The position numbers and the translations under genes were made by a program. Positions 37,693 through 38,689 of a stretch of DNA of 64,000 nucleotides are shown here, piece by piece. The notes under the pieces were generated by a model, which worked only from the letters and a program-made list of their open reading frames with translations, did not search any database and had not been told where the DNA came from. Each line of letters begins with the position of its first letter. Within the stretch, counting starts at the first letter, position 1. Source of the DNA: Bacteroidetes bacterium UBA6183 (GTDB taxonomy: Bacteria > Bacteroidota > Bacteroidia > UKL13-3); contig DITN01000036.1 of assembly GCA_002422865.1 (NCBI GenBank), forward strand, positions 8,246 to 72,245, read 5' to 3'.

Positions 37693-37845
37693 TTAATTGC
37701 GCTTTCTTACCAAACCGTTCTTTTTATATTCAACACGCTTACCTCCATTTGCACCATCAAAAGTTGGACACTTTTTTGCTTTACATGCAAAAAAAGGTAA
37801 CAAAATAACTATACATAAAAGTATAACAAAATGTTTGATACGCAT
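37693..37845 (-). CDS. Small (50 aa) basic lipoprotein
   Basis: MRIK + hydrophobic core + FFAC-KAKKCP; ATG 37845 preferred over 37893, which lies inside a terminator. Confidence 0.55.
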   Translation of the reverse strand: MRIKHFVILLCIVILLPFFACKAKKCPTFDGANGGKRVEYKKNGLVRKRN

Positions 37846-37877: not shown

Positions 37878-37912
37878 AAAAAATCCCGTGCACAAAGCAA
37901 CGGGATTTTTTT
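37878..37912 (-). terminator. Intrinsic terminator after the histone-like gene
   Basis: AAAAAATCCCGT..ACGGGATTTTTTT, 20 nt past the TAG at 37933. Confidence 0.85.
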
Positions 37913-37932: not shown

Positions 37933-38052
37933 CTATTTTTTAGGAGCAGCTTTCTTAGCAGCAGCTTTCTTAGGAGCAGCTTTCTTAGCAGCAGCCTTTT
38001 TAGGAGCAGCAGTTTTTGCTGGTGCTGCTTTTTTAGTTTTTTTAGTTGCCAT
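37933..38052 (-). CDS. 39-aa Lys/Ala/Pro histone-H1-like protein (absent from ORF track)
   Basis: Manual translation MATKKTKKAAPAKTAAPKKAAAKKAAPKKAAAKKAAPKK*; own -7 box and terminator. Confidence 0.85.
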   Translation of the reverse strand: MATKKTKKAAPAKTAAPKKAAAKKAAPKKAAAKKAAPKK

Positions 38053-38085
38053 GTTTTAAAATATTTATTTGATTGATTACATGAA

Positions 38086-38093
38086 CAAATTTA
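38086..38093 (-). promoter_or_regulatory. -7 box (TAAATTTG) for the histone-like gene
   Basis: Exact TAnnTTTG 33 nt upstream of ATG 38052. Confidence 0.65.
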
Positions 38094-38099
38094 TACGAG

Positions 38100-38689
38100 T
38101 GTTTATATATTTCAAATACCTACTCACAATCAGTTACTAAAAATAGCCACGTTGTTTTGTTGATAACCATAATTATATTCATCAAAGCATTGATTTATCA
38201 AGCACTTTAGCACATTATTAGTTGCATTAATCACGCACAAAATTGTTAGTCACAACATATTCACACACACATTCAATCATCGAAACAACAAACAAAAAAC
38301 GAAAACAAATTTACTTATCAATCCTTGTCAATACCTGATAATTCAAGTATCTTCATCTATTATTAAGAGCCCATGCTATAACATCATACAAATAACATTG
38401 CTTACAACACAACACCTATCTCATCATCATAAAAATACTTTTCGTGTATATTTTTTTTTACACTTGATTCAGATTGTTTATATATCGACTATAAAAACAC
38501 AACGTTTAAAAGACTTGGATTTTTCAATACATACAAAGCATTTTATAATTACCTCGTTATTGAAAAAATATACAAAATATTTAATGTAGTTATTCACATC
38601 TTTTTTTTCATTTATTAAAAAAAATAAAATATCAATCAACGAAAAAACATAAACAGTAACTATTATTGAAAGACTAATTGAAAAATATT
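38100..38689. other. Long AT-rich, G-poor non-coding region with DnaA-box-like and IHF-like motifs (possible oriC)
   Basis: TTATTCACA 38590-38598; 1-mismatch boxes at 38158, 38206, 38246, 38257; IHF consensus on the minus strand at 38183-38195. Confidence 0.35.

Follow-up and report, generated by a model that had tools for sequence, protein, structure and literature searches.

A predicted free-standing lysine/alanine/proline-repeat protein of the histone H1-tail type, conserved across the Bacteroidia order NS11-12g

The window analysed here is a stretch of 64,000 nucleotides from the genome of Bacteroidetes bacterium UBA6183. The locus of interest is a short reading frame on its minus strand at 37933-38052 (stop included), which runs from an ATG start to a TAG stop codon and in this assembly encodes a protein of 39 amino acids (MATKKTKKAAPAKTAAPKKAAAKKAAPKKAAAKKAAPKK). 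The protein, referred to here as the KAP-repeat protein, is made up of 16 Ala, 15 Lys, 4 Pro, 3 Thr and 1 Met and has no acidic residue. A fixed head of 11 residues, MATKKTKKAAP, is followed by pentamers (AAPKK, AAAKK and variants) with two lysines each, and the C-terminus is itself a repeat unit (...AAPKK) that ends directly at the stop, without a distinct non-repeat C-terminal part. At the DNA level the array (37936-38010, minus strand) has a period of 15 nt, equivalent to one pentamer, nested in a period of 30 nt; Tandem Repeats Finder gives 2.5 copies with 93% matches for period 30 and 5 copies for period 15. Compared codon by codon, the repeat units differ by synonymous changes only (AAA/AAG, GCT/GCA). 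A preliminary description of this DNA had already listed the frame, its composition with no acidic residue, and a tandem repeat of about 30 nt whose synonymous variation keeps the peptide; all coordinates and counts hold, and Tandem Repeats Finder and the codon comparison agree on the repeat.

The net charge amounts to +15 for the 39-aa form and to +39 for a 99-aa form described below, i.e. about +0.4 per residue, and the family as a whole consists of 41% A, 39% K, 9% P and 6% T, again with no acidic residue. Such a product would leave no room for any folded domain, in line with its earlier characterization as nothing but a Lys/Ala/Pro repeat of the histone-H1-tail/Hc2 type. That the gene is missing from the original track of open reading frames, as had also been pointed out, fits a length cut-off: a default list starting at 60 aa would omit a frame of 39 aa. 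The longer allele is annotated as a gene in other, independent assemblies (ENA, JGI). Two other identities of the locus were discarded. A secreted or antimicrobial peptide is ruled out by the lack of a hydrophobic signal segment, and an antisense frame by the plus strand, which has no ORF of 25 aa or more across the gene.

Primary-sigma promoters of the Bacteroidota, according to the Bacteroides/Flavobacterium promoter literature, combine a -33 TTTG with a -7 TAnnTTTG element about 19 nt apart. Set against this consensus, the gene has both boxes at the right spacing on the minus strand: the -7 element TAAATTTG at 38086-38093, matching TAnnTTTG, and, 19 nt further upstream, a TTTG at 38113-38116. 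In the 3.26-Mb genome the complete pattern TTTG-N19-TAnnTTTG occurs only 68 times without mismatch, this promoter included. The 5' leader (38053-38080, minus strand) is A-rich, lacks a Shine-Dalgarno sequence and starts with the conserved word GTAATCAATCAAAT (38067-38080), which occurs only once in the genome. In loci found by protein similarity alone, the 90 nt upstream of the gene are nearly invariant (TTTG, 19 nt, TAAATTTG, leader with GTAATCAATCAAAT). The -7 box and the leader also formed the DNA pattern with which further loci were retrieved, so that their conservation in those loci is by construction; the -33 TTG, which lies outside this pattern, reaches a conservation of at least 90% across 46 species.

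Likewise outside the retrieval pattern and at least 90% conserved in the 46 species is a box further upstream, GTTATCAACA (38158-38167, minus strand), which precedes the -7 element by about 65 nt. The genome contains 8 copies of it, roughly the number expected by chance, and we consider it a possible regulator site. The box is one mismatch away from the DnaA box TTATCCACA, of which the genome contains four perfect copies, all on other contigs (C12, C37, C60 and C101). A gap of about 590 nt (38094-38677) separates the gene from the divergent cinA, and within the 200 nt of it that were aligned, conservation outside the promoter block and the GTTATCAACA box is only moderate.

Downstream of the stop codon lies an intrinsic terminator (37878-37912, minus strand) composed of an A-tract, a GC-rich hairpin (AAAAAAATCCCGT...ACGGGATTTTTT) and a T-tract. 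The hairpin folds with -19.2 kcal/mol (z = -4.6), and none of 200 shuffled sequences folds equally well. A simple terminator scanner, whose rules are narrower, overlooked this strong hairpin. In 45 of the 46 complete orthologues a hairpin of at most -7 kcal/mol with a T-run follows within 75 nt of the stop, in 40 distinct hairpin sequences. The GC-rich hairpin, the T run and the pairing kept despite sequence change are those of a Rho-independent terminator, which is conserved in function while its stem sequences differ between species. No Rfam family came near its threshold at the locus, the best match (24 bits, cut-off 43 bits) falling on the terminator. Both the -7 box and the terminator thus lie where the preliminary description had placed them, and its notion of a free-standing gene that has a promoter and a terminator to itself is borne out by two elements that are present here and conserved in the orthologues. 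Directly past the terminator, at 37693-37845 (minus strand), a 50-aa ORF (MRIKHFVILLCIVILLPFFACKAKKCPTFDGANGGKRVEYKKNGLVRKRN) with a lipoprotein-like signal and cysteine is found; most of the related assemblies inspected have it annotated as a gene in a syntenic position.

When 40 relatives were searched in six frames, matches beginning at residue 1 came from all genomes of the genus and from the majority of the family. The orthologous frames share the MATKKTKKAAP head, followed by AAPKK/AAAKK-type pentamers that are always in frame. With the DNA pattern from promoter and leader, 54 further species-level genomes were retrieved. For the order as a whole (GTDB NS11-12g, represented in the collection by the single family UKL13-3), 109 of 119 genomes have a match, among them 76 of the 80 high-quality genomes, and 16 of 17 genera are covered; with few exceptions the matches are short, free-standing frames. 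GTDB Bacteroidia; NS11-12g; UKL13-3 is the published classification of two of the matched MAGs (PMC11080526, PMC13460031), and the one complete genome in the order is that of Bacteroidetes bacterium UKL13-3. Start, frame and stop context are common to about 50 species, every indel preserves the frame, and the stop codon always sits just before the terminator. This recurrence shows the repeat to be more than a product of chance; loss of the reading frame in relatives, named in the preliminary description as an outcome that would speak against a gene, is not what we see.

The selection acting on this frame can be judged from a longer version of the protein. At least nine contigs, taken from independent assemblies in ENA, JGI and NCBI, encode exactly the 99-aa protein of one ENA contig (L075); their flanks are 79-100% identical to the window, with some lineages reaching only 79-94%. 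Compared with L075, five coding sequences of this identical protein show 8-11 synonymous and no non-synonymous differences. This pattern shows purifying selection on the protein and is specific to the Lys/Ala/Pro frame. Codon choice in the gene is strongly skewed (GCT accounting for 0.74-0.87 of Ala, CCT for about 0.8 of Pro and ACT for 0.63-1.0 of Thr codons). In a 29-gene ribosomal-protein/EF-G cluster GCT reaches 0.39 versus 0.28 for the genome average, CCT 0.44 versus 0.36 and ACT 0.34 versus 0.23. The skew of the gene runs in the same direction as that of the ribosomal-protein cluster, and homogenization of the repeat could contribute to it.

The contrary proposal, an untranslated frame in which the repeat is a non-coding DNA or RNA element that happens to be open, can draw on the +1 frame of the repeat (LLLRK...), which is stop-free as well (L039, P0037); because of this, openness of the frame alone is weak evidence for a gene. 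A non-coding element would, however, have to account for a conserved ATG, for indels that are all frame-preserving among about 50 species, for a stop that invariably precedes the terminator, for the 8-11 synonymous against zero non-synonymous changes in five diverged coding sequences, for codon usage biased in the direction of highly expressed genes and for the distance to any Rfam family. We find it hardly credible. From these comparisons we regard the KAP-repeat locus as a genuine monocistronic protein-coding gene, the representative of a family that extends across the whole NS11-12g order.

An exact look-up in a collection of 15 billion proteins found neither the 39-aa protein nor 12 of its orthologues nor the 99-aa protein, which is nevertheless called elsewhere; because a called gene is absent too, this absence is uninformative on gene calling. 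A word-index homology search returned 3 matches and an exhaustive phmmer search 557, the best 150 of which were KAP arrays inside proteins of 148-4503 aa. The KAP-repeat family itself was absent from the phmmer library, and the one related match (P0037) turned out to be a frameshifted mis-assembly. A scan of metagenome DNA with the shared N-terminal DNA gave no match in a scanned set that may leave out close records.

The preliminary description had framed the product as a minimal micro-protein of 39 aa, and this framing does not stand. The 46 complete orthologues range from 39 to 125 aa with a median of 94.5, and only the window copy (39 aa) and that on another MAG contig (L034, 41 aa) are shorter than 63 aa. 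The copy in the closed genome UKL13-3, which was obtained from 112x PacBio reads (PMC5248499), comprises 92 aa. The most telling comparison is that with the 100-kb ENA contig L075. To one side of the array, blastn aligns 2,792 nt of it to the window with 100.000% identity, and to the opposite side 8,429 nt with 99.93%. Despite these near-identical flanks L075 encodes 99 aa, and only the array differs. The coding sequence in the window is that of L075 shortened by 180 nt; the six 30-nt units concerned were removed between two GCTGCTCCTAAAAA words within the array at 37936-38010. The 39-aa form is accordingly either derived by a 180-nt in-frame deletion from a protein of about 100 aa or an artefact of such a protein, and under either origin of the short allele the protein characteristic of the lineage measures about 100 rather than 39 aa.

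Whether the deletion happened by slippage in the cell or during library preparation or assembly is a question on which we see the two sides as roughly balanced. A purely artefactual 39-aa length, in an organism whose true allele is the 99-aa one or a close variant and whose array was shortened in library amplification, assembly or contig merging, has in our estimation slightly less than an even chance. The locus is error-prone in short-read data, with 10 of 56 contigs ending inside the repeat, one N gap and two frameshifts, including that of P0037. In run SRR5323112 the Logan contigs (k=31) match the window with 100% identity and break off at positions 38091 and 37965. Position 37965 coincides exactly with a 30-mer of which the 39-aa allele contains a single copy and the 99-aa allele two, followed by different bases; no 31-mer is repeated in the 39-aa allele, so that its assembly should have continued past this point. 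Because the contigs break at 37965, the sample must hold a longer allele or a sister species. On the other side, the breaks could come from co-occurring sister species that share the 30-mer, of which there are 11. Also in favour of an artefact, the exact 99-aa protein is constant across diverged lineages, the only other copy below 63 aa (L034) likewise comes from a MAG contig, and the 39-aa junction was not found in the JGI metagenome contigs, a scanned set that may leave out close records.

Against an assembly error of the usual kind stands the junction itself. The sequence ...ACT GCT GCT CCT AAA AAG GCT GCT GCT AAG... in the window is common to its parent sites over only 14 nt, so that a de Bruijn collapse at any usual k would be unable to create it, whereas a single slippage deletion between 14-nt direct repeats explains the 39-aa allele fully. 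A collapse from a longer allele with the same initial junction was considered as well and rejected: all sister alleles begin with ...AAA AAA GCC and none with ...AAA AAG GCT. Since the 14-nt overlap excludes a de Bruijn collapse and no sister allele begins in this way, reads carrying the junction must exist.

A third possibility is that the 39-aa and 99-aa alleles are both real in one near-clonal population, the gene acting as a slippage-driven "valency dial" and its product as a minimal, domain-less analogue of linker histones. We consider this quite unlikely. If both alleles were real, repeat number would tune nucleoid compaction or condensate formation in NS11-12g bacteria, and no natural chromatin protein shorter than the 39-aa allele would be known from bacteria. 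For practical purposes, annotated lengths of the KAP-repeat gene in short-read assemblies and MAGs are unreliable, and trypsin-based proteomics will miss the protein, which trypsin would reduce to fragments of 1-5 residues. Public MAGs often fail to assemble correctly at the repeat, with an N gap or frameshifts reading through the terminator in L039, L041 and P0037 and contig ends within the repeat in L028, L030, L040, L054, L056, L063, L064 and L067.

KAP-type sequences occur in further proteins of this genome and its relatives, all encoded outside the window. On contig C100 (41823-43058, minus strand) a protein of 411 aa contains about 270 aa of (AKPAPKKVVAKKVA)n repeats and ends in a DksA/TraR C4 zinc finger (PF01258, E 1.5e-7), which amounts to a DdbA architecture in a Bacteroidia genome. 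Topoisomerase I (C95:40711-43266, plus strand) has a C-terminal KKAPKKTAAKKTAAKKTAAKKIAKK tail, and the ribosomal silencing factor RsfS (C41:43350-43937, minus strand) an N-terminal KAP-rich segment of about 60 aa; because both carry such segments, the lineage can be said to attach KAP tails to DNA and ribosome factors. About 4 kb before the start of the window, an ORF of 87 aa (C61:4182-4445, plus strand) combines a basic, KAP-like N-terminal half (MTTPKKSTPAKSTPAKKGAKTAAKSAPKKIAPKK) with an extremely acidic C-terminal half (DDEDEDEDDE...DDDEDDDDDF) and has no Pfam match. Its product might serve as a counter-ion or chaperone for polycations, as prothymosin-alpha does for H1. In another genus of the family (genome G021, L016:952-1683, minus strand), KAP-rich tails flank a non-repeat core of about 80 aa (...RVTFADKMLAAIKKEGRMMTSHEIATKMV...KFHYGIKG) in a protein of 243 aa, an H1-like three-part layout for which Pfam gives only HC2 (E 0.006). 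Frames of 239-267 aa recur in that genus.

As to the function of the KAP-repeat protein, we favour an abundant, non-specific binder of polyanions whose main ligand would be chromosomal DNA and which would act by charge neutralization, bridging and compaction. We give this proposal about an even chance or slightly better. The consensus promoter would yield an abundant, intrinsically disordered polycation, which would bind polyanions without sequence specificity, with chromosomal DNA as the likeliest ligand. Binding would then neutralize the backbone charge and bridge or compact the DNA, much as Chlamydia Hc2, Bordetella BpH1 and the H1 tail do, and the valency of the interaction would be set by the number of repeats. 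Beyond the gene, its conservation, the purifying selection, the promoter and the terminator described above, it is the abundance of the protein, its ligand and its effect that we infer. [quoted passage not shown] Nucleoid condensation, as put forward in the preliminary description, would be one possible effect; beside DNA, repeats with this chemistry have documented ligands in RNA (PhaF, Hc2) and polyphosphate granules (AlgP). The genome retains two to three HU genes (on C95, C15 and C6) as well as Ppk1, and with these HU genes the nucleoid does not have to rely on the KAP-repeat protein alone.

RNA or ribosomes as the main ligand, with the protein working as a modulator of translation, an RNA chaperone or a hibernation or condensate factor, would be rather unlikely in our view, for all that several known cases lean in this direction. 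The disordered KPAA region of PhaF binds specific mRNAs directly and activates their translation (PMC12818456), the affinity of Hc2 for RNA exceeds that of Hc1, with Hc2 repressing translation (PMC2848022), and in the genome studied here a KAP segment is fused to the N-terminus of RsfS. On the other hand, KAP tails in this genome are also found on topoisomerase I and the DksA-like protein, i.e. in DNA and RNA-polymerase contexts, and the gene shows no linkage to translation genes, its neighbours being cinA, the small lipoprotein gene and a 219-aa gene. A range of 63-125 aa between species is, moreover, unexpected for a structural ribosomal protein, and this twofold variation in length rules out that particular role. 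Another polyanion to be considered is polyphosphate, whose granules the protein might organize or tether to the nucleoid in the manner of AlgP. [quoted passage not shown] AlgP and PhaF, however, have a folded N-terminal domain that the KAP-repeat protein lacks, the gene is not linked to ppk, and its promoter has a constitutive-looking consensus with no obvious starvation signal, which makes a polyphosphate role very unlikely to our mind.

Bacterial proteins resembling the H1 tail have been studied in few organisms, namely as Chlamydia Hc2, Bordetella BpH1, Pseudomonas AlgP/PhaF and the tails of actinobacterial HU proteins, and their true ligand (DNA, RNA or polyphosphate) is still debated. With a conserved 11-residue head, pentamers and no folded domain, the KAP-repeat protein is the barest version found so far. 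It is encoded by a near-universal and strongly constrained gene, probably highly expressed, in an order of abundant uncultured freshwater Bacteroidia. The natural series of 39 to 125 residues invites the question how valency alone sets polyanion binding and compaction.

Among the known systems, eukaryotic linker histones provide the reference point for composition: the C-terminal domain of H1 contains (S/T/A)PKK-type motifs and about 40% Lys. The KAP-repeat protein resembles this tail in length (about 100 aa, the normal product having 63-125 aa) and in its Lys/Ala/Pro-rich, disordered composition, but lacks the globular winged-helix domain and the N-terminal tail of H1, and there is no nucleosome to bind. 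No match to Pfam Linker_histone was obtained at E values up to 10, the whole sequence being repeat. The H1 C-terminal domain is encoded by indel-prone, low-complexity DNA (PMC5400378).

A close likeness is that to Hc2, which is built of consecutive pentamers of two basic and three Ala/Val/Thr/Pro residues with evenly spread charge, varies in length between strains by in-frame loss or gain of repeat blocks, and binds both DNA and RNA (PMC2848022). Both proteins are free-standing and consist almost wholly of pentamers with two basic residues, and both vary in repeat number in frame. Hc2, in contrast, has 165-237 aa, uses Arg and Lys, shows a higher-order element of 36 aa and a distinct C-terminal part, and is encoded by a late developmental gene, whereas the KAP-repeat protein has 39-125 aa, uses Lys only, has a higher-order unit of 10 aa and no non-repeat tail. 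The Pfam model PF07382 (HC2) scores 9.8 bits (E 1.1) with the 39-aa protein and 23.4 bits (E 7.5e-5) with a 99-aa orthologue, both below the gathering threshold of 40. BpH1 is length-polymorphic too, with 182-206 aa in B. pertussis (PMC2848022). It shares Lys/Ala-rich repeats with the KAP-repeat protein, as do H1-like proteins of the Burkholderiales, but at about 195 aa and in another phylum; NCBIfam NF038053 (hist_H1_lk_Burk) gives 10.9 bits (E 0.4) against a curated cut-off of 80.

For the repeat domain of AlgP, DNA binding has been shown in vitro, and without polyphosphate AlgP covers the nucleoid (PMC9239181). Like our family, AlgP and PhaF contain disordered Lys/Pro/Ala tandem repeats, with large differences in copy number from species to species (PMC9239181, PMC12818456). 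Their unit, however, is the four-residue KPAA with one Lys, preceded by a folded N-terminal domain that confers the specific function, as opposed to a five-residue period with two Lys and no other domain in the KAP-repeat protein. An HU protein with a Lys-rich tail (HupB/HupS type) does not come into question either, as no match to PF00216 (Bac_DNA_binding) was found in the protein. Streptomyces DdbA, which joins an H1-like to a DksA-like part, shows H1-like arrays in use as modules for DNA binding in bacteria (PMC3643593); the KAP-repeat protein has neither a DksA nor any other domain.

In the library searched, there was no paper on H1-tail-like proteins in Bacteroidota. Homology to the characterized H1-like proteins is unproven and, for sequence of such low complexity, may be unprovable; convergence and descent would be inseparable in a sequence this simple. 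The KAP-repeat protein belongs to a known kind of bacterial polycationic nucleic-acid-binding protein rather than to a new class of micro-proteins.
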